A stretch of DNA of 27,306 nt from Patescibacteria group bacterium (GCA_028864955.1 JAGWLE010000001.1:1-27306); one strand, 5' to 3'. Positions 5,884-25,138 are shown, numbered from the stretch's first letter. Translations and numbers: made by a program. The notes: generated from the sequence alone by a model not told the origin.

Positions 5884-8800
5884 TTAGGCTGCGAGCCCTA
5901 GCGTCGCCCCCTCTTCGATAGACGTCAGATTCGTCGCCTTTTTTATTTCTGCCTCAAATTTATTCACAAGTGACTTCAATTCGGCCGGAACGACAAGCAC
6001 GGCTATGTCACTAACCTTGAGGCCTTTCTCCTTGCGCAGATCCTGAATCTTGCGCAAAAGCTCGCGAAGATCACCTTCTTCCTTGAGAGCCGCTGAAATG
6101 TCCGTATCAAGCTTGTCTTCGGTTGCGCCAAATACGATCTCCTTGACATTAAGCTCATCTTTGATGATTTCGCCAAGACTGATCACGGCTGAAGTGGTTG
6201 AGAATGAAGCGAGCGGCTGGCGCACATTGATCTTGGCCGCATTGCGCGCTTCGAGTCCTTTGGAGGAAATCTGCCGCGCGATTTCCATTTCTTTGAGAAG
6301 TTTTTCGTCGACGGCACCGGCTGCCGGCCACTCTGTCAGGTGCACAGACTCCAGCTCTCCGCCGACTTCCTTGTAGGCGTATTCGGAAAAGAACGGCGTA
6401 AATGGCGCCATGACTTTGGCGAGAGTAAGGAGAATCCAACGTGTTGTATTCAGAGCCGACTGCTTGTCCGCTTCATCATCTCCCTTGAATCGGTCGCGCG
6501 AACGGCGCAGATACCACTGCGATAGGTCTGCCACAAAATCGCGAATGGCGCGCGTCGGCTCGAGGAAAACGTAGGCATCCATGCCTTTCGTGACGGCTTC
6601 GATCAGCTGATTCATTCGCGAAACGATCCAGCGATCAAGCACATTCTGCGATTCTGGTTGCACCGTGTCACTTGTGACTTTTGACTTCTGACTTTTGACT
6701 TTTGACTTCTGACTTGGCTCTTGTGACTTGTGACTTTCAACCTTCGGCCTATGTTCATAAATCTTGTAGAAACTTGTCACATTCAATGCGAGATTGAAGA
6801 CTTTCTTGACGACTTCATCAACGGTCTTCTCGTCAAAATTCTTTGATTCTCCCGGCTGATTGACACTGTACATCCAGAAGCGCAGCGCATCAGCACCATA
6901 CTTGTCCATCATCTCGAATGGATTGACGACGTTGCCCAACGACTTGGACATCTTTTTGCCATCGGCGTCGAGGATGTGGCCGAGGCAGATGACATTCTTG
7001 TACGCCTTGCCCATACCCATGAGCGTGCCGACCGCGTGCAAGGTGTAAAACCAGCCGCGTGTCTGGTCGATGGCTTCAGAGATAAAGTCCGCCGGATATG
7101 CCAGTTTCTGCTCATGACCGAAGATCTTGCTGAGCAATCCGTGTGACTCTTGATTTTCGACTTTCGACTCAAATGGATAGTGATCCTGCGCAAATGGCAT
7201 GGCGCCGCTGTCGAACCAGACATCCATGACTTCCTTGACCCGCTTCATGTCGCCGCCGCAGCTACAGGCGAGCTTCGTGTCATCGATATACGGCCGATGG
7301 AGATCGAGCTCATATTCCGGGTTATGCGGCACGATCCTGAAGTCGACCTTCTTGTAATGGCCTTTCTGAATATAGTTGTTGAGTTCATAGGCGATGGTTT
7401 GCTCCCTATCCCAGCCGTGCGCGGCTGCGATAAGCATCATCGTCGGACTGCCGTGTGAAACGATCAGGATCTTCTTGCCAGAATACTTTGATTCGATGTC
7501 ATAGAGGAAATCACCCATGCGCTTCTTCACCTCGGCGTATGTTTCAACGCCGACCGGCGATTTGCTAAATCGGTAGATGTCCATGGGAAATTCCTTCATG
7601 AATCCCTCGAGAGGCTTGCCGTTCCATTTGCCGAGAGCCATCTCCTGCAGACGATCGTCTGTTATAAATTGTTCATCAGCAAGCCCGAACATTTTCTGTA
7701 CGATACGAGCCGATTCCTGCGTGCGCATAAACGGCGAAGCGAAGATGAGATCTATGCCTTCACCTTTGAGCGGCGCCAGATGTTCGGCGATCTTTTGTTT
7801 GCCGACTTCAGTCAGATGATTCGAGACGTTTGCATCGGAATTGAGCAGGCCTTTCGCATTGAATTCGGCCTCACCGTGTCGCATGATCCAGTACTCATTC
7901 TTGGGCTTGCGCGCGATCTCTTCGACGGAACCGACAACACGGCGCACGCCGCACTTTTCGCACAACCACACAGGCAACGGCGTACCCCAATAGCGCTCTC
8001 GTGAAATGGCCCAATCCTTGACCTCGCGCAACCACTCGCCAAAGCGGCCTTCTTTGATATGTTCAGGCTCCCAGTGGATGCCTTCGTTTTCCCTGACCAG
8101 CTTGTCGCGAAGTTTGGACATGGCGATGTACCAGCTGTCGCGAGCGAAATAGATGAGCGGCGTATGACAGCGCCAACAGAACGGATACGTATGCTCATAT
8201 TTTTCCTTGTAGAACAGGAGTCCACGATACGCCAGATCTTTGATGATCTCCACCGCCACCGCCTCGTCATCCTTCACGAACTTCCCCGCCAAGAATCCAG
8301 CTTCTTTCTTGAATGTGCCGTCGTCGTTCACCAGGTGATACTTTGGCAAGCCGACGCGCGTGCCGAGCTCGAAGTCGTCCTGACCATACATCGGCGCCAT
8401 ATGCACGATGCCCGTGCCATCTTCTGTGGTCACGAAATCACCGGCATAGACTTTGAATGCATTCGTGAGTTTTTCTTTTTCTGCACCACTCACATTGTCT
8501 TTCAAGAATGGGTAGAGAGGCTCGTATTCGGTACCAATCAGGTCTTTGCCCTTGAATGTTTCAACAATTGATGGATTCTTGAAATGACCTCTAACAGATT
8601 CAAATCTGTCTTTAGCAAGAATATAGAATTGAGACATCGTCTCAGAAACATTAGGTGTCAATCCATTTAACTCCTCCTTTACAGGCTCACCAATAAACAA
8701 ATCTTTAATTTTGACATACTCAATCTTTTCATTGACGGCCAAACCGACATTTCCAGGCAATGTCCACGGCGTCGTCGTCCACGCAAGGAGATACGTGTCG

Positions 8801-9492
8801 CCAGGTTTTTCACTTTCGACTTTTGACTTTTGGCTTTTGACTTTTAACTTCACATACACCGACAAATCCTTGACCGTCTCATACCCCTGTGCCAATTCAT
8901 GCGACGACAACGCCGTACCGCAGCGCGGGCACCAGGGCACGACTTTATAGTCCTTATAGAGGAGCTTCTCGTGATCGACGTGCTTGACGATGTTCCAGAC
9001 TGATTCGATGAAGTTTGGCTTATATGTGACATAGGCATTCTTCAAATCAACCCAAAATGCCATACGTTCGGTGAGTTCTTCCCATTCGCGTACATACGTC
9101 CAAACAATCTCTTTGCACTTGGAATTAAACTCCTCGATACCGTATGCGTCAATTTCTTTTTTTGACCTAATGCCAAGCTCCTTCTCTGCCTGGAGTTCGA
9201 CGGGTAATCCGTGAGTATCCCAGCCTCCGCGACGACGTACGCGATAGCCGCGCATGGTCTTATAGCGCGGAATAGCATCCTTGAAGGCGCGCGATTCAAA
9301 ATGACCGATATGCGGCCGCCCATTAGCGCCTGGCGGTCCCTCGTAAAAAACAAACTCGCCCTTTGGCGCGGGCTTATTCAGGGACTTTTCAAAAATGCCC
9401 TGCTCTTTCCAAAATGCAAGAATAGACTCCTCACGTTCTGCATGAGGAGATTTTGGATGTTCTGTCTTTTTCGAGTCAGCCTGATCTGCCAT
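5884..9492 (-). CDS. ileS: Isoleucine--tRNA ligase, type 2 (IleRS2), with inserted histidine phosphatase domain
   Basis: GPPGANGRPHIGH, GWDTHGLPVE, WTTTPWTLPGN, GTGIVHMAP, DWAISRERYWGTP, VMDVWFDSG, EAIDQTRGWFY and KMSKS. C-terminal EG.LRELLRKIQDLRKEKGL.VSD is characteristic of type 2. Confidence 0.97.
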   Translation of the reverse strand: MADQADSKKTEHPKSPHAEREESILAFWKEQGIFEKSLNKPAPKGEFVFYEGPPGANGRPHIGHFESRAFKDAIPRYKTMRGYRVRRRGGWDTHGLPVELQAEKELGIRSKKEIDAYGIEEFNSKCKEIVWTYVREWEELTERMAFWVDLKNAYVTYKPNFIESVWNIVKHVDHEKLLYKDYKVVPWCPRCGTALSSHELAQGYETVKDLSVYVKLKVKSQKSKVESEKPGDTYLLAWTTTPWTLPGNVGLAVNEKIEYVKIKDLFIGEPVKEELNGLTPNVSETMSQFYILAKDRFESVRGHFKNPSIVETFKGKDLIGTEYEPLYPFLKDNVSGAEKEKLTNAFKVYAGDFVTTEDGTGIVHMAPMYGQDDFELGTRVGLPKYHLVNDDGTFKKEAGFLAGKFVKDDEAVAVEIIKDLAYRGLLFYKEKYEHTYPFCWRCHTPLIYFARDSWYIAMSKLRDKLVRENEGIHWEPEHIKEGRFGEWLREVKDWAISRERYWGTPLPVWLCEKCGVRRVVGSVEEIARKPKNEYWIMRHGEAEFNAKGLLNSDANVSNHLTEVGKQKIAEHLAPLKGEGIDLIFASPFMRTQESARIVQKMFGLADEQFITDDRLQEMALGKWNGKPLEGFMKEFPMDIYRFSKSPVGVETYAEVKKRMGDFLYDIESKYSGKKILIVSHGSPTMMLIAAAHGWDREQTIAYELNNYIQKGHYKKVDFRIVPHNPEYELDLHRPYIDDTKLACSCGGDMKRVKEVMDVWFDSGAMPFAQDHYPFESKVENQESHGLLSKIFGHEQKLAYPADFISEAIDQTRGWFYTLHAVGTLMGMGKAYKNVICLGHILDADGKKMSKSLGNVVNPFEMMDKYGADALRFWMYSVNQPGESKNFDEKTVDEVVKKVFNLALNVTSFYKIYEHRPKVESHKSQEPSQKSKVKSQKSKVTSDTVQPESQNVLDRWIVSRMNQLIEAVTKGMDAYVFLEPTRAIRDFVADLSQWYLRRSRDRFKGDDEADKQSALNTTRWILLTLAKVMAPFTPFFSEYAYKEVGGELESVHLTEWPAAGAVDEKLLKEMEIARQISSKGLEARNAAKINVRQPLASFSTTSAVISLGEIIKDELNVKEIVFGATEDKLDTDISAALKEEGDLRELLRKIQDLRKEKGLKVSDIAVLVVPAELKSLVNKFEAEIKKATNLTSIEEGATLGLAA
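6668..6737. repeat. In-frame heptamer tandem array (TGACTTt/c/g x10 on plus strand) inside ileS
   Basis: tcacttg tgacttt tgacttc tgacttt tgacttt tgacttc tgacttg gctcttg tgacttg tgacttt; encodes KVESHKSQEPSQKSKVKSQKSKVTSD. Confidence 0.95.
7144..7171. repeat. Short in-frame heptamer array (4 units) inside ileS
   Basis: tgactct tgatttt cgacttt cgactca; encodes ESKVENQESH. Confidence 0.7.
7340..7900 (-). other. Histidine phosphatase (phosphoglycerate-mutase-like) domain inserted in IleRS (approximate boundaries)
   Basis: YWIMRHGEAEFN (RHG), ASPFMRTQESA, DDRLQEMALGKWNG, ETYAEVKKR and ILIVSHGS. Lies between IleRS segments CEKC..GSVEEI and DLHRPYID..CSCGG. Confidence 0.92.
8810..8851. repeat. In-frame heptamer tandem array (6 units, 42 nt) inside ileS
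   Basis: tcacttt cgacttt tgacttt tggcttt tgacttt taacttc; encodes KLKVKSQKSKVESE. Confidence 0.92.
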
Positions 9493-9532: not shown

Positions 9533-11320
9533 TTACATCCTCTTTGGCACCGTGATCCCGAGCAACCATAGGCCGTCTGTCATGACATTCGTGAATGCGC
9601 GCGTCAGAGCGACGCGATATGGCGAGAGTGGATCATGTTCGTCGATGATAGTCTGCGACGCATAGAAGCTGTTGAACTCGCCGGCAAGCGACACCAGATA
9701 ATTGGCCACCAGCTGCGGCGCATATTCCGCCTGAGCGCGCTCGACGACGTCGGCAAATCGCGAAAGCAATTTTTCCAGAGAGCCAACCTTGTCCGGCAGC
9801 TTGATTTCTGAAACACCTGATTCGTCTCCGACAAGATCCAACATGTCACCTGCCACTTTTGACGTGTGACTTTCGCCTTGTGACTTGTTACTTGTAACGT
9901 GTGCCTTCTCTAAAACTGAATTTGCGCGCACCACGGAGTATTGCAGATATGGCCCCGAATCGCCTTCGAAGGAGATCGACGCTGCCGAATCAAAGATGAT
10001 ATCACTGCCGATCGACGTGCGCAGGATCGAGTACTTGATGGCGCCGATAGCGATCGCGTCCGAAATCTCCGTCGCCTCCTCCGGTTCGAATTTCCGATCG
10101 GCTATTTTCTGTTTGACCATCTCCTTGATGTCTGAAATGAGCGACTCGGCCGTGACAACATTGCCCGTTCGGCTCGACATTTTGCCTGAAGCAAATCGCA
10201 TCATGCCATGGCCGATGTGCATGGTCTTTGCGCCGACATTTTGATCGATGAGCGATAGGGCTTTGACGAGAACTCTGAAATAGTCGTTCTGTTCGCTGGC
10301 CGTAACGATGATCGAACGTTCAAGATCAGGGTGGCTCTGGAACTTGCTCGTATTCAGGCCGATTTCCTTGGCCTCATAGGTCGGCAGTCCCAAAGCGTTC
10401 ACGAACACGCGCGTATGCAAGCCGTAGTCTTCGCCTCTAAAGACGACCGCGCCCTCGCTCATTTGGAAGACATTCTTCGTCAGGAATTCCTTGACGATCG
10501 ACAGACCGACCGGCGCCATGTCGCTCTCGAACAGAGTTTCGTCGAATTTCGTGCCGAGTCGGGCGTAGAGCATGTCGAAATGATCGAGGCTCCATTTCCT
10601 GCCCTTCTCATACAGCGCGTTTACATCCTTGCTCGATCGCTCATACAGCAGGCGATTCAAGACTTCGATGTCATCCTTGGCGGCAGGATCTTCTTCATAG
10701 GCTTTCGTGCCTTCGACGTACATTTTGCCCAGAAAATCTGTCCTCTCGGCGATCGGCGCGGCATCGCGCGGCATTTCGTCCCGGTGTTTTTGGATCGCCC
10801 AGACCGCTTTGGCGATATGCAAACCGATATCCGAGGTATAGCACATGCGGATCGTCTCGGCCCCGGAATATTCGATCAGCCGTGAGAGGGACTCTCCTAT
10901 GGCATTCGACATCAGATGTCCGATGTGGAAGACCTTGAACGTGTTTGGATCGGTGTATTCGATGATGATCTTTCGAGCCAGCGAATTTCTGGCCGCCGAG
11001 CGCGAATGAAGAGCAGCAGGCGCGCGCATCCGAATGACTGTACGGGCAAAAGCCTCGTCTCTGACTGAAAAATTGATAAAACCCGGACCGGCTATGAAAA
11101 CTTTGGCAACGGCAGGCGGCATAGATCGGCCGAACTCGGCAACGATCTTCCCGGCCAATGACTGCGGCGACATGCCGAGCTTCCGGGCGCCAACCATCGC
11201 TATGTTCGTTGAAAAATCCCCGTGCGCCGGATTATCCGGATATGCCAGCCGTATGCCTTGTTCGTCGAGGCCGAGCTTTTGGGCGATCTCCTTGAGGCGT
11301 TCCAATATCTCCGCTTTCAT
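9533..11320 (-). CDS. argS: Arginine--tRNA ligase
   Basis: HGDFSTN, GPGFINF, EYTDPN..K.FHIGHL, KMSSRTG, FEGDSGPYLQYS.VRA.SVL and C-terminal GL.LLGI.VPKRM. Start moved from 11368 to the ATG at 11320, 7 nt after TGCTAGAAT. Confidence 0.97.
   Translation of the reverse strand: MKAEILERLKEIAQKLGLDEQGIRLAYPDNPAHGDFSTNIAMVGARKLGMSPQSLAGKIVAEFGRSMPPAVAKVFIAGPGFINFSVRDEAFARTVIRMRAPAALHSRSAARNSLARKIIIEYTDPNTFKVFHIGHLMSNAIGESLSRLIEYSGAETIRMCYTSDIGLHIAKAVWAIQKHRDEMPRDAAPIAERTDFLGKMYVEGTKAYEEDPAAKDDIEVLNRLLYERSSKDVNALYEKGRKWSLDHFDMLYARLGTKFDETLFESDMAPVGLSIVKEFLTKNVFQMSEGAVVFRGEDYGLHTRVFVNALGLPTYEAKEIGLNTSKFQSHPDLERSIIVTASEQNDYFRVLVKALSLIDQNVGAKTMHIGHGMMRFASGKMSSRTGNVVTAESLISDIKEMVKQKIADRKFEPEEATEISDAIAIGAIKYSILRTSIGSDIIFDSAASISFEGDSGPYLQYSVVRANSVLEKAHVTSNKSQGESHTSKVAGDMLDLVGDESGVSEIKLPDKVGSLEKLLSRFADVVERAQAEYAPQLVANYLVSLAGEFNSFYASQTIIDEHDPLSPYRVALTRAFTNVMTDGLWLLGITVPKRM
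9846..9908. repeat. In-frame degenerate heptamer array (9 units, 63 nt) inside argS
   Basis: tcacctg ccacttt tgacgtg tgacttt cgccttg tgacttg ttacttg taacgtg tgccttc; encodes EKAHVTSNKSQGESHTSKVAGD. Confidence 0.85.
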
Positions 11321-11361: not shown

Positions 11362-11390
11362 TTGACAAAGATATCGATTGGATGTATAAA
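11362..11390 (+). promoter_or_regulatory. Sigma70-type promoter TTGACA-N17-TATAAA
   Basis: TTGACA at 11362-11367, 17-nt spacer, TATAAA at 11385-11390; divergent from argS. Confidence 0.85.
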
Positions 11391-11395
11391 GATAC

Positions 11396-11630
11396 AAGCT
11401 CAAGCAGCGCACTTTCTGGAGATGCACGCTTCCTTTACGGCGGCTTGTGATGGTGGTTTAGACCAGCTGGCGGGCACTGGAATTCGCTCGTCAAACATTG
11501 CTCCGTCACGGGTAATCTCCCGTTTCGCTGATCGCCGCATACTTACTCGAGAGTACAGTCGTGTTATCGCGAAGCGCACGAGGCGCAGCCGCCGGTCACA
11601 GGAACACCCGGTAGCTGCGCCTTATTTTTT
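11396..11630 (+). ncRNA. Candidate non-coding RNA (~235 nt), family unidentified
   Basis: Bounded by the near-consensus promoter and an intrinsic terminator. No credible enclosed ORF; several local hairpins. Confidence 0.5.
11581..11630 (+). terminator. Intrinsic terminator
   Basis: Stem AGGCGCAGCCGCCGG / CCGGTAGCTGCGCCT (15 positions, one mismatch, one G-U), 12-nt loop, then TATTTTTT. Confidence 0.85.
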
Positions 11631-11649: not shown

Positions 11650-12882
11650 CTACTTTGCCTGGCGCAAAATCCTGTCGATCATGCCGGCGATCCTTTCCAT
11701 GTCTTTTTCCTTGCCACCCCTGGTCGTCTCCGCCGCCGTGCCCAAACGAATACCTGAAGGATCGGCAGGAGGTCGCGTATCGAACGGAATAGCGTTCTTA
11801 TTGACAATGATGCCCTTTTGCTCGAGCCGCCGGCTGGCCTCGGCGCCGGCTATGCCGCCAACCCCCCGATCATTATTGCGGCCGTCGTTCCAGGTATCGA
11901 CAAGCACGAGATGCGAATCGGTGCCGCCGGAGATCAGCCGCCAACCGCGGTCTTGAAGCGTTTCCGCCAGCGCTTTTGCATTCTTCACGACTTGAGCGGC
12001 GTACTTTTTGAAAGTTGGGCTGGCCGCTTCACGGAGCGCCACCGCCACCGCCGCAATCTGATTTTCGTGCGGACCGCCCTGCAGACCGGGAAAAACCGCT
12101 TTGTCGATCTTCTTCCATAGCTCTCGCGAGTCTTTGCGTGAAAATATGAGCGCCGAGCGCGGCCCCCGCAGAGTCTTGTGCGTCGTGGTAGTCACGACAT
12201 CGGCATAATCAAAAGGCGACGGATACGCCCCACCGGCCACCAAGCCGGCGATATGAGACATGTCGACCATCATCAGCGACTCGGCTGACGTCGCCACTTC
12301 CTTGCACCTCTGCCAGTCGATGACGCGCGGGTAGGCCGTGTAGCCAAAAACGATGATCGTCGGCCGCTCTTTCATGGCTTGTTCGCGCAAAATATCGTAG
12401 TTCAACATCTCTGTCGTTTGATCGAGGCCATAGGGCACTTGCGTCCAGAATTTGCCCGAGGCCGAGACTTTTTGACCGTGCGTCAGATGTCCGCCCTGAT
12501 CGAGCGCCATGCCCATGATCTTGCCGGCAGGCGTCGGCCGACCATCGGCCGCGGCGCCGGCGCGTGGCACCAGCGCCATATACACGGCCGTATTCGCCGG
12601 CGAGCCGGAGAGCGGCTGTACATTGACATGCCACTCGGCCGGATTGAGCCCGAAGAGTTTGAGGGCGCGCACCTGACAGAGCTTCTCGAGCTTATCAACA
12701 ATCTGATTGCCGCCATAATAGCGCTTATCGGGATAGCCTTCGGAATATTTGTTGGTAAATTCGGAGCCTAAAGCTTCCAGCACATCGCTGGATACGTAAT
12801 TTTCCGAAGCAATCAGATTGACGACTTTTTTCTGGCGCCTCTTTTCAGCTTCGATAAGTTTTTTGACTTGAATATCTTTCAT
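11650..12882 (-). CDS. glyA: Serine hydroxymethyltransferase
   Basis: LIASENY, NKYSEGYP.KRYYGG, VQPLSGSPAN, GGHLTHG, PLP-lysine motif TTTTHKTLRGPR, FPGLQGGPH and SGIRLGT. Confidence 0.98.
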   Translation of the reverse strand: MKDIQVKKLIEAEKRRQKKVVNLIASENYVSSDVLEALGSEFTNKYSEGYPDKRYYGGNQIVDKLEKLCQVRALKLFGLNPAEWHVNVQPLSGSPANTAVYMALVPRAGAAADGRPTPAGKIMGMALDQGGHLTHGQKVSASGKFWTQVPYGLDQTTEMLNYDILREQAMKERPTIIVFGYTAYPRVIDWQRCKEVATSAESLMMVDMSHIAGLVAGGAYPSPFDYADVVTTTTHKTLRGPRSALIFSRKDSRELWKKIDKAVFPGLQGGPHENQIAAVAVALREAASPTFKKYAAQVVKNAKALAETLQDRGWRLISGGTDSHLVLVDTWNDGRNNDRGVGGIAGAEASRRLEQKGIIVNKNAIPFDTRPPADPSGIRLGTAAETTRGGKEKDMERIAGMIDRILRQAK

Positions 12883-23883: not shown

Positions 23884-25074
23884 CTACGGCATTATACCAG
23901 TCGATGTCGAAACTTCGTATAGCCCGGGCACGCCCCACCAGATCGTGAGAAAGAGTTTGTGCGAGACCGGTTCATAGAGAATTTCATTCAACTCGGGAGG
24001 CAAGGCCGATGTCGTCGAACTTTCCCTGATGCCGGTCACCTTGTATCGCCTGAGCGATCCGAGATTCATGCCAGGGAAAACATCCAGATAGCCGTCCATG
24101 CCGCAATTGTATAGATCGGAACCGTAGACAAACAGGCCGAGAGAGTCTCCGGGTAGCGTGAATCTGGTCACCGACATGTCGACGCCGTTTATGCGGAAGC
24201 CGTACGGCGCCCCTTCACAGCCGACATAGACATACCCGCCGAAAGCCGGCATATCGTCACTCGGATGGCATGTGCCCAGATCAACAGCTGCGCTCACGGA
24301 TAAAGTGGCAGCGTCAACTTTTTCGATTACATCGCTGGTATTGCTGCCGAAATAGAGGAAGGTCGAACTACCTTCGGTCATGAGCGCGGCTGAATGTCCA
24401 TGTGGTATGTGGCCGTTGGCATTGTAGGAGAGTCTGCCGTCTCTCAAACTGACCTTGAAAACTTCGGCCGGCGTCGTGTTGGTGATACCGTAGACATACG
24501 CCCCGTCGGTGACGATGGCCGGCTTGTCCCCGGCATCGATAGCGCTGGTGCTGGCGATCGAGCGCTCGATCAGCGTATAGGGGTCTATGCTGTATATATG
24601 CAGGCCGTGCGATTCGGAAATCAGAAAATCGACCGTGCGACGGGTATCATCGTAGGCCATGGTTTCAATACTGCCCCGACGCGGCACGCTGATCAAAGAG
24701 TACGCGCCGAGATGCGCCGGGTCGTAGAAGACGGCCAAATGTCCGTCAGCTGTCTGGCTGTCTTCCGAACCAATGAACAGACGCTCATCGGCCACCAGCG
24801 TACCATGCGCGTAATTGAATACGGCCGACGATGAGGCCACCACCGGGGCCAGACCATACGATATCTGAGTTACAGCCGTCGGAAATGACGGCAGAGCATT
24901 CGGAACACGCGATGTAGTCGAAGTCGCCTGCTCGACTGGAACAGGTATGATATGCGCTATGGGAGCGACCGGCCCGGATGCATGAGTGTTCAACCAGACG
25001 CGAACTGCCACATACAGCGCCAAACCACACACAGAGAGGAGCGCGGCGATTATCACCTCTTTGCCATGATTCAT
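23884..25074 (-). CDS. Membrane-anchored hypothetical protein, probable beta-propeller
   Basis: N-terminal hydrophobic helix, Pro/Thr linker, then repeated blade-like units (GAYVYGIT...EVFKVSL; GYVYVGCE; SDLYNCG). Start moved to ATG 25074, 8 nt after TATAAT. Confidence 0.65.
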   Translation of the reverse strand: MNHGKEVIIAALLSVCGLALYVAVRVWLNTHASGPVAPIAHIIPVPVEQATSTTSRVPNALPSFPTAVTQISYGLAPVVASSSAVFNYAHGTLVADERLFIGSEDSQTADGHLAVFYDPAHLGAYSLISVPRRGSIETMAYDDTRRTVDFLISESHGLHIYSIDPYTLIERSIASTSAIDAGDKPAIVTDGAYVYGITNTTPAEVFKVSLRDGRLSYNANGHIPHGHSAALMTEGSSTFLYFGSNTSDVIEKVDAATLSVSAAVDLGTCHPSDDMPAFGGYVYVGCEGAPYGFRINGVDMSVTRFTLPGDSLGLFVYGSDLYNCGMDGYLDVFPGMNLGSLRRYKVTGIRESSTTSALPPELNEILYEPVSHKLFLTIWWGVPGLYEVSTSTGIMP

Positions 25075-25138
25075 AAGGCTCAATTATAATCAATCTGTCC
25101 CCTATATCCTACTGCTATCTTACGGCGCCCGTCCGGCC

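Follow-up and report, generated by a model that had tools for sequence, protein, structure and literature searches.

The interval between argS and glyA in an ultra-small Parcubacteria-type member of the Patescibacteria very probably holds a stand-alone gene for a non-coding RNA, transcribed from the strand opposite both neighbours. The RNA family to which this gene probably belongs is new, matching none described, and the member studied here is an atypical one. The explanation that fits best as a whole, and that we favour tentatively, is a genus-restricted, fast-evolving small RNA acting in trans.

A stand-alone transcription unit between argS and glyA

The window, i.e. the whole stretch of 27,306 nucleotides analysed here, is contig C23 of a source assembly of 643 kb in 97 contigs that is 87% complete. 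Exploring the gap between argS and glyA (Table 1), we found a candidate RNA unit that is divergent from argS and tail to tail with glyA. A sequence-only reading had proposed that a promoter and a terminator enclose a unit with no credible ORF between these genes and on the opposite strand, and this enclosure was borne out, the transcript being predicted to start at about 11397 and to span about 233 nt. The promoter, TTGACA-N17-TATAAA, had been called the strongest in the window; it is real, but its score of 11/12 is only the joint best, tied with TTGCCA-N18-TATAAT at 25061-25090 (plus strand), the other 11/12 match in the window. Sites scoring at least 11 are expected 0.17 times per shuffled window. 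The terminator consists of a stem GGCGCAGC...GCTGCGCC with an inner stem CCGG/CCGG; its end is 20 nt away from the stop codon of glyA, and its T-run is confined to the plus strand. A consensus scan demanding T at position 6 of the -10 box and a loop no longer than 8 nt lists neither the promoter nor the terminator, which is due to the scan rules only.

The longest complete ORF within the transcript is 17 aa, and Pfam searches with two frames of the sRNA body gave no match. As the sequence-only reading had stated, a frame of 131 aa runs from the promoter through the terminator into glyA: it opens at the TTG of the -35 box, meets no stop before the terminator and ends at 11757.

The neighbouring argS carries an extended -10 of its own, TGCTAGAAT, and a TGnTAnAAT box is found 6-8 nt upstream of the argS start in 60 of the 76 genus loci described below. 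From the position of this box, the argS mRNA is read as leaderless and driven by its own promoter, and the gap is therefore not an argS leader. A T-box or other minus-strand cis leader of argS is ruled out by the leaderless promoter, by the lack of a T-box match and by the presence of the T-run on the plus strand only. Some 26 bp separate the argS -10 box from the -35 of the sRNA promoter, which faces the other way. In relatives the extended -10 of argS is TGCTAnAAT, strongly conserved, and reads ATTGTAGCA on the plus strand.

Further along the same strand as argS, the window encodes an IleRS (1202 aa; 5884-9492, minus) in which a complete histidine-phosphatase domain (PF00300, residues 535-706) is located within the catalytic domain. 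Using aragorn on the host genome, only two tRNA-Arg genes (GCG, TCT) and only one tRNA-Gly gene (CCC) were called, a set that may be incomplete at 87% genome completeness; tRNA-Ile genes with AAT and TAT anticodons were also called.

Table 1. Features of the argS-glyA interval and its flanks (positions counted from the first letter of the window)
Feature	Position	Strand	Basis
argS	9533-11320	minus	Pfam, three ArgRS domains
argS start and its own extended -10	-10 at 11336-11328, ATG 11320-11318	minus	box 7 nt before ATG
sRNA promoter: -35 TTGACA 11362-11367, 17-nt spacer, -10 TATAAA 11385-11390	11362-11390	plus	11/12 matches
sRNA body, ~185 nt, non-coding	11397-11581	plus	no usable ORF, no Pfam or Rfam match
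Predicted three-way junction	11444-11512	plus	MFE and centroid folds; inferred for the window copy
Pyrimidine-rich AUUGCUCC 11497-11504 and hairpin ACGGG-UAAUCU-CCCGU 11508-11523	11497-11523	plus	candidate degenerate motif counterparts
Penultimate 54-nt hairpin, CUCCC lead-in before, 4-nt linker after	11522-11575	plus	layout of the family 3' module
Two-tier terminator hairpin 11582-11621 and T-run TTATTTTTT 11622-11630	11582-11630	plus	sequence, folding
glyA (SHMT); stop codon 11650-11652	11650-12882	minus	Pfam, SHMT E 8e-151

The unit is kept in place across the genus

Regions upstream of argS were taken from 75 other genomes of the same GTDB genus and oriented like the window, giving 76 loci with the window included. 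The genus is deep, with ArgS identities of only 36-66%. glyA adjoins argS in 70 of the 76 loci; the gap between them measures at least 120 nt in 65 of these, and there is almost no gap (under 120 nt) in 5. A unit was counted when a promoter matching at least 9 of 12 positions was accompanied by a terminator made of a hairpin and a T-run. By this measure the stand-alone unit recurs among the relatives: it was present in the orientation of the window in 47 of the 65 syntenic loci and only in inverted form in another 5, i.e. in either orientation in 52. The promoters of the relatives usually carry a perfect TTGACA and lie 40-110 nt from the argS start, with the terminator beside glyA. Loci from 29 further families of the order had, upstream of argS, neither a comparable promoter nor the sequence motif described below. 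We concluded that the unit is kept in place across the genus and, as sampled, is limited to it.

Orthologue transcripts range from 103 to 372 nt and cluster only as pairs and triples, beyond which they are unalignable. BLAST of the window RNA against 41 and then 93 genomes of the genus returned only chance matches of 20-24 nt in coding sequences of ribosomal protein S21-like proteins, and a metagenome scan using ArgS revealed no closer relative, the best being 60% identical. Among sequencing runs no RNA data set containing this sequence was listed, and four DNA runs yielded contigs with exactly the window's sequence, leaving no strain variation to use.

The positional series also bears on whether the transcript encodes a small protein. 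An ATG at 11422 with GGAG ahead of it opens the long (131-aa) frame, and in two relatives, G011 and G101, the slot holds an ORF of the 169-aa class. However, the long frame of the window has no stop before the terminator; 34 of the 35 orthologues of the first set are without an ORF, their longest ORFs being no longer than in shuffles; and the orthologues have no conserved ORF, several having none at all. In addition, the host genome shows no use of Shine-Dalgarno sequences, and its leaderless genes start at the 5' end of the transcript, where the sRNA has no start codon. Taken with the 17-aa limit on complete ORFs, these data make a small-protein mRNA very improbable.

Other contents of the slot were seen in individual relatives. 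In G011 (L037:3310-3950) and G101 (L107) the ~169-aa ORF is conserved, has a similar promoter and replaces the sRNA; the predicted products begin MKIKVIKLGTEC... and MQIRVIKLGTVC..., respectively. Seven relatives (L017, L018, L030, L041, L057, L106 and L115) carry on the glyA strand a structured CU-rich stretch with a terminator just before the argS promoter and with no evident promoter of its own; this stretch may be a version of the RNA derived from the glyA 3'-UTR. The terminator AAAGAAAAGCCGGAGGCTTGGTG is common to L030, L106 and L115.

A short pyrimidine-rich motif marks the family

Searching the enlarged set of loci, we found (UC)GGUUCCUC or a one-base variant of it on the transcribed strand in 29 loci, inverted genes included. 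In the first set, GTTCCTC occurs in 12 of the 35 transcripts compared with 0.7 in shuffles and none on the antisense strand. The two bases that precede the core were not used in motif finding; they are U in 23 of 30 and C in 25 of 30 cases, and the six positions that follow the motif are poor in G. In the inverted copy L062 the motif is still on the transcribed strand, indicating that the RNA, and not divergent transcription itself, is conserved.

The motif lies 57-164 nt into the RNA (median 117). Its predicted probability of being unpaired is about 0.53 compared with 0.40 overall, and 14 of 30 local folds place it in a hairpin loop. The closing pairs of this hairpin differ (GG/CC, CGG/CCG, GGUU/AACC, UCG/CGA) and the loop ranges from 4 to 13 nt, with one subset presenting a 7-nt loop, UUCCUCA, closed by GG/CC. 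Several subfamilies have the motif hairpin at the head of a domain whose closing outer helix carries compensatory changes. Many relatives share a 3' module consisting of a CU-rich lead-in, a hairpin of 40-55 nt, a linker of 2-12 nt and the terminator.

The window RNA has no copy of (UC)GGUUCCUC, and in its own genome the octamer GGTTCCTC occurs only within long ORFs. G126, the nearest relative by ArgS (66% identity), bears the canonical motif. The corresponding candidate region of the window RNA, at RNA positions 101-127, lies inside the range over which the motif is found in relatives, and comparison by eye with the motif region of G126 gives 12 identities in 20 bases. Candidate counterparts of the motif, none of which is preferred, are AUUGCUCC, the hairpin ACGGG-UAAUCU-CCCGU and GGU-UUAG-ACC (11455-11464). 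The family 3' module is present in the window RNA in full, from the CUCCC lead-in to the terminator. Given that the window copy has no motif, no BLAST relative and no excess stability, its homology is argued from position, promoter and layout, which together make it likely that the window RNA is a positional orthologue of the genus family whose signature was lost or changed.

Structural signal in the family and fold of the window RNA

To characterize structure apart from the terminators, 35 bodies without them were compared with dinucleotide shuffles, giving a mean z of -2.07 (t-test p = 3e-10); the sense strand was more stable than the antisense strand in 25 of the 35 (Wilcoxon p = 0.003). 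Given that the orthologues cluster only as pairs and triples, a pooled pairwise test took the place of family-wide covariation statistics. In this test the structure was predicted from one member of each of eight independent orthologue pairs (52-70% identity) and transferred through the alignment to its partner. Among body pairs changed on both sides, 51-54% stay pairable, the slid controls giving 40-41% (Fisher p = 0.048 with a single count per pair, 2e-4 with both directions counted), whereas pairs with one-sided changes were retained no better than controls (35% and 42%, respectively). For terminator pairs changed on both sides the values were 83% and 35% in slid controls. Alignment of one four-member subfamily with MAFFT and RNAalifold recovered the terminator and one short stem only. 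Together, the data indicate that the compensatory structural signal in the bodies of the family is real but modest, and many of the predicted body pairs are probably wrong.

The window copy behaves differently from the pooled bodies. The MFE of its whole transcript gave z = -2.05 on the plus strand compared with -0.75 on the minus strand, but this value is due to the terminator, as the body without it is no better than shuffles (z = 0.01). The sequence-only description of the RNA as structured thus fails for the window copy. Both the MFE and the centroid folds are multi-branched, with five hairpins plus the terminator and no stem joining the two ends. The predicted three-way junction has an outer helix in which CUUGUGAUGG (11444-11453) pairs with CCGUCACGGG (11503-11512), and as inner hairpins UGGU-UUAG-ACCA (11454-11465) and UGGCGGGC...GCUCGUCA (11468-11493). 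Among the local stems named earlier, ACGGG-TAATCT-CCCGT (11508-11523) and TACT-CGAG-AGTA are real, while the one in GCGCAC...GCACGC comes to 3 bp only. The suggested long-range pairing of CTTGTGATGG with TTATCGCGAAG was not recovered; folding instead pairs CTTGTGATGG with CCGTCACGGG.

These results can be set against the view that no functional RNA is made here at all, the terminator being shared with glyA and the promoter being either a by-product or an interference device acting on the argS promoter 26 bp away. The window copy, with neither excess fold stability nor conserved sequence, favours such a view, and a hairpin 20 nt from the glyA stop could also halt glyA transcription. Yet the T-run serves the plus strand only, and loci outside the genus have no such promoter. 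Moreover, the motif is conserved within the RNA in 29 relatives, an inverted unit retains it on the transcribed strand, and the stability and the compensatory signal extend over the family. We regard the absence of a functional RNA as quite unlikely.

Comparison with known RNA families

Rfam 15 matched nothing over the whole window at gathering score. At E<=10 the interval yielded only a chance snoRNA match (snoZ185, E 2), and at E<=1 the loci of 14 relatives gave noise only, such as mmgR at E 0.45. The genes for RNase P RNA and tmRNA sit elsewhere in the host genome. The lack of a match in the window and in the 14 relatives agrees with the undescribed family that the sequence-only reading had offered as one possibility. 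Searches of the open literature brought up no account of regulatory or housekeeping sRNAs from Patescibacteria.

The other possibility it had offered, a divergent 6S-like RNA, fared worse, each of the features examined having failed: the RF00013 match, a rod-like fold with a closing stem, and a steady size. Like 6S RNA, the transcript is non-coding, has a strong promoter and is found as a unit in most genomes of its clade. RF00013 is silent in the window, in the host genome and in 41 genomes of the genus, leaving the role unfilled, but the model finds 6S in only 5 of the named control genomes and its silence is accordingly weak evidence. In some orthologues the 5' end pairs with sequence ahead of the terminator (L015 and L019, for example, with compensatory changes), and two short members, L035 and L024, fold as rods. 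On the other hand, no Rfam 6S model matches even at E<=10, and the window RNA and most orthologues are multi-branched with no large central bubble. Their lengths vary widely (103-372 nt), the family conserves a short single-stranded sequence rather than a shape, and the unit is missing from the slot in several complete genomes (a gap below 120 nt in 5 loci). A functional analogue of 6S, or an Ms1-like RNA binding RNA polymerase, is on this evidence improbable.

The closest likeness is to a group of Hfq-independent sRNAs with exposed C- or CU-rich loops, namely RsaE/RoxS of Firmicutes, 6C RNA of Actinobacteria, and Cuckoo/CcsR and mmgR/alpha-r8 of Alphaproteobacteria, which measure 70-120 nt and act mainly on Shine-Dalgarno regions. 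Shared with them are a stand-alone gene, a promoter and an intrinsic terminator of the RNA's own, and hairpins that expose a short, invariant pyrimidine-rich element, UUCCUC in the present family, in an otherwise drifting sequence. The 3' end of one orthologue matches mmgR/suhB weakly (cmscan, 25.6 bits, E 0.45), reflecting this shared layout. Unlike these RNAs, the transcripts described here give no significant match to any of the models, are much longer (150-370 nt), occur in a lineage without Shine-Dalgarno regions and, in the window copy, are devoid of the motif. As regards the class of trans-encoded sRNAs, the window unit has its own promoter and intrinsic terminator and is non-coding; a conserved candidate seed, predicted to be mostly unpaired, is present in the family (29 loci) and absent in the window copy.

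A divergent signal recognition particle RNA, of the 4.5S or scRNA type and missed by the Rfam models, would account for the size of the transcript, which fits a long SRP RNA, and for the failure of RF00169 and RF01854 to match anything in the window, the host genome, 41 genomes of the genus or 41 families of the order. Its partner proteins are, however, missing. The Ffh M domain (PF02978) was found in none of the 41 genus genomes, and PF00448, the SRP54-type GTPase domain of Ffh and FtsY, yielded nothing beyond P-loop noise in 41 genomes each of the genus and the order, with 14 of 14 controls detected. The window RNA also has no GNRA-capped helix 8 motif. Given that the lineage has neither Ffh nor FtsY, an SRP RNA is practically excluded. 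Nelson and Stegen 2015 (PMC4508563) report having detected ffh and ffs in none of the Parcubacteria genomes; the absence of the particle in Parcubacteria is thus already published, and the present searches extend it to 80 more genomes and to FtsY.

Translation start signals and target searches

Because the sRNAs that resemble the family pair with Shine-Dalgarno regions, the start signals of the host bear on what a pyrimidine-rich loop could do. Analysis of 587 ORFs of the host genome revealed a peak of -10 hexamers 12 nt before the ATG, and no positional peak of GGAGG, AGGAG or GAGGA upstream of them, i.e. no Shine-Dalgarno enrichment. The host's own 16S rRNA is unassembled, and the anti-Shine-Dalgarno tail was read in four relatives, G074, G047, G004 and G010 (L069-L073), in which the 16S rRNA ends ...GCUGCUCGUGGAAUAUUUCAA, also written ...GGCACGGGUAGCGGAAGCUGCUCGUGGAAUAUUUCAA, and contains no CCUCC there. 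Translation in this lineage thus seems to begin independently of Shine-Dalgarno pairing, for the most part on leaderless mRNAs; no paper tying loss of the anti-Shine-Dalgarno to Patescibacteria turned up in a literature search. In the absence of both the CCUCC tail and a Shine-Dalgarno signal, a C/U-rich seed cannot be a classical blocker of ribosome-binding sites.

Searches for pairing partners were empty. Exact complements of the extended motif occurred at chance-level counts in the genomes of ten relatives; GTGAGGAACC, searched in five genomes, matched mainly the sRNA genes themselves; and the pattern TGRAGGAACC, which differs from the intended complement of the motif, was at control level. 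In the host genome, complements of its own degenerate motif and of GAGGAACC were found neither at gene starts nor in stable RNAs, and when the whole body was run against 1066 gene starts in RNAduplex, only long-range duplexes that are artefacts came out. With the target searches empty, we dropped the idea that the motif masks leaderless start codons through an anti-start CAU/CAC placed right after it. Pairing with 16S h45, with the 3' tail or with the sarcin-ricin loop, as judged by eye, was too weak. Mimicry of a T-loop or an anticodon loop was rejected on the grounds that the loop size is not constant and that the purine-57 and A58 positions of a T-loop are unmet.

The lack of a conserved complementary site is also a point in favour of an RNA that binds protein, as an RNP scaffold or a sponge, with the UCGGUUCCUC loop as the recognition site of, for example, a translation or RNA-processing factor or of ArgRS. 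A 10-nt element that hardly varies between genomes sharing only 50-66% identity in ArgS would suit such a site, as would the subset with the 7-nt loop UUCCUCA closed by GG/CC, and the gene stays beside argS in 70 of 76 loci. The varied closing pairs and a loop of 4-13 nt, however, suit a single-stranded seed better than a shaped site; adjacency to argS may be plain synteny, and the window copy is without the element. We consider protein binding unlikely on balance. There is a slim chance that the RNA is a lineage-specific housekeeping RNP component, and no ordinary regulator, whose UCGGUUCCUC loop is read by a core translation or transcription protein. If so, it might bind ArgRS by mimicking the anticodon loop of Arg(CCU), take the place of the missing 6S RNA or supply a CCUC element in trans, in a lineage that lost the SRP, the anti-Shine-Dalgarno tail and initiation led by Shine-Dalgarno sequences; the organism of the window would then have rewired or lost the interaction.

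Proposed mode of action

The preferred reading is a small RNA that acts in trans, and base pairing is a possible way for it to do so, with a chance that we put a little short of even. According to this model the sRNA would be transcribed alone, starting at a near-consensus sigma-70 promoter and stopping at an intrinsic terminator, and would display the nearly invariant, mostly unpaired (UC)GGUUCCUC element that is carried by about 30 members. Upstream of the 3' module, the element would often sit in the loop of a short hairpin, with its own GG pairing to a CC further downstream to close it. The exposed pyrimidine-rich loop could then pair in trans with purine-rich sites in other RNAs, and these sites would not be classical ribosome-binding sites. 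In the window copy the targets may have shifted or the constraint may have relaxed; taken alone, this copy is a real but atypical member to which no function is assigned.

For the lineage, the locus offers a concrete, testable example of an sRNA that can be tracked by position through about 50 genomes and that bears a 10-nt signature, in a host with unusual start signals, i.e. no anti-Shine-Dalgarno tail and leaderless mRNAs. The series of loci shows a rapid turnover of the sRNA by inversion, by loss, by replacement with an ORF and, in the genome of the window, by loss of the signature.
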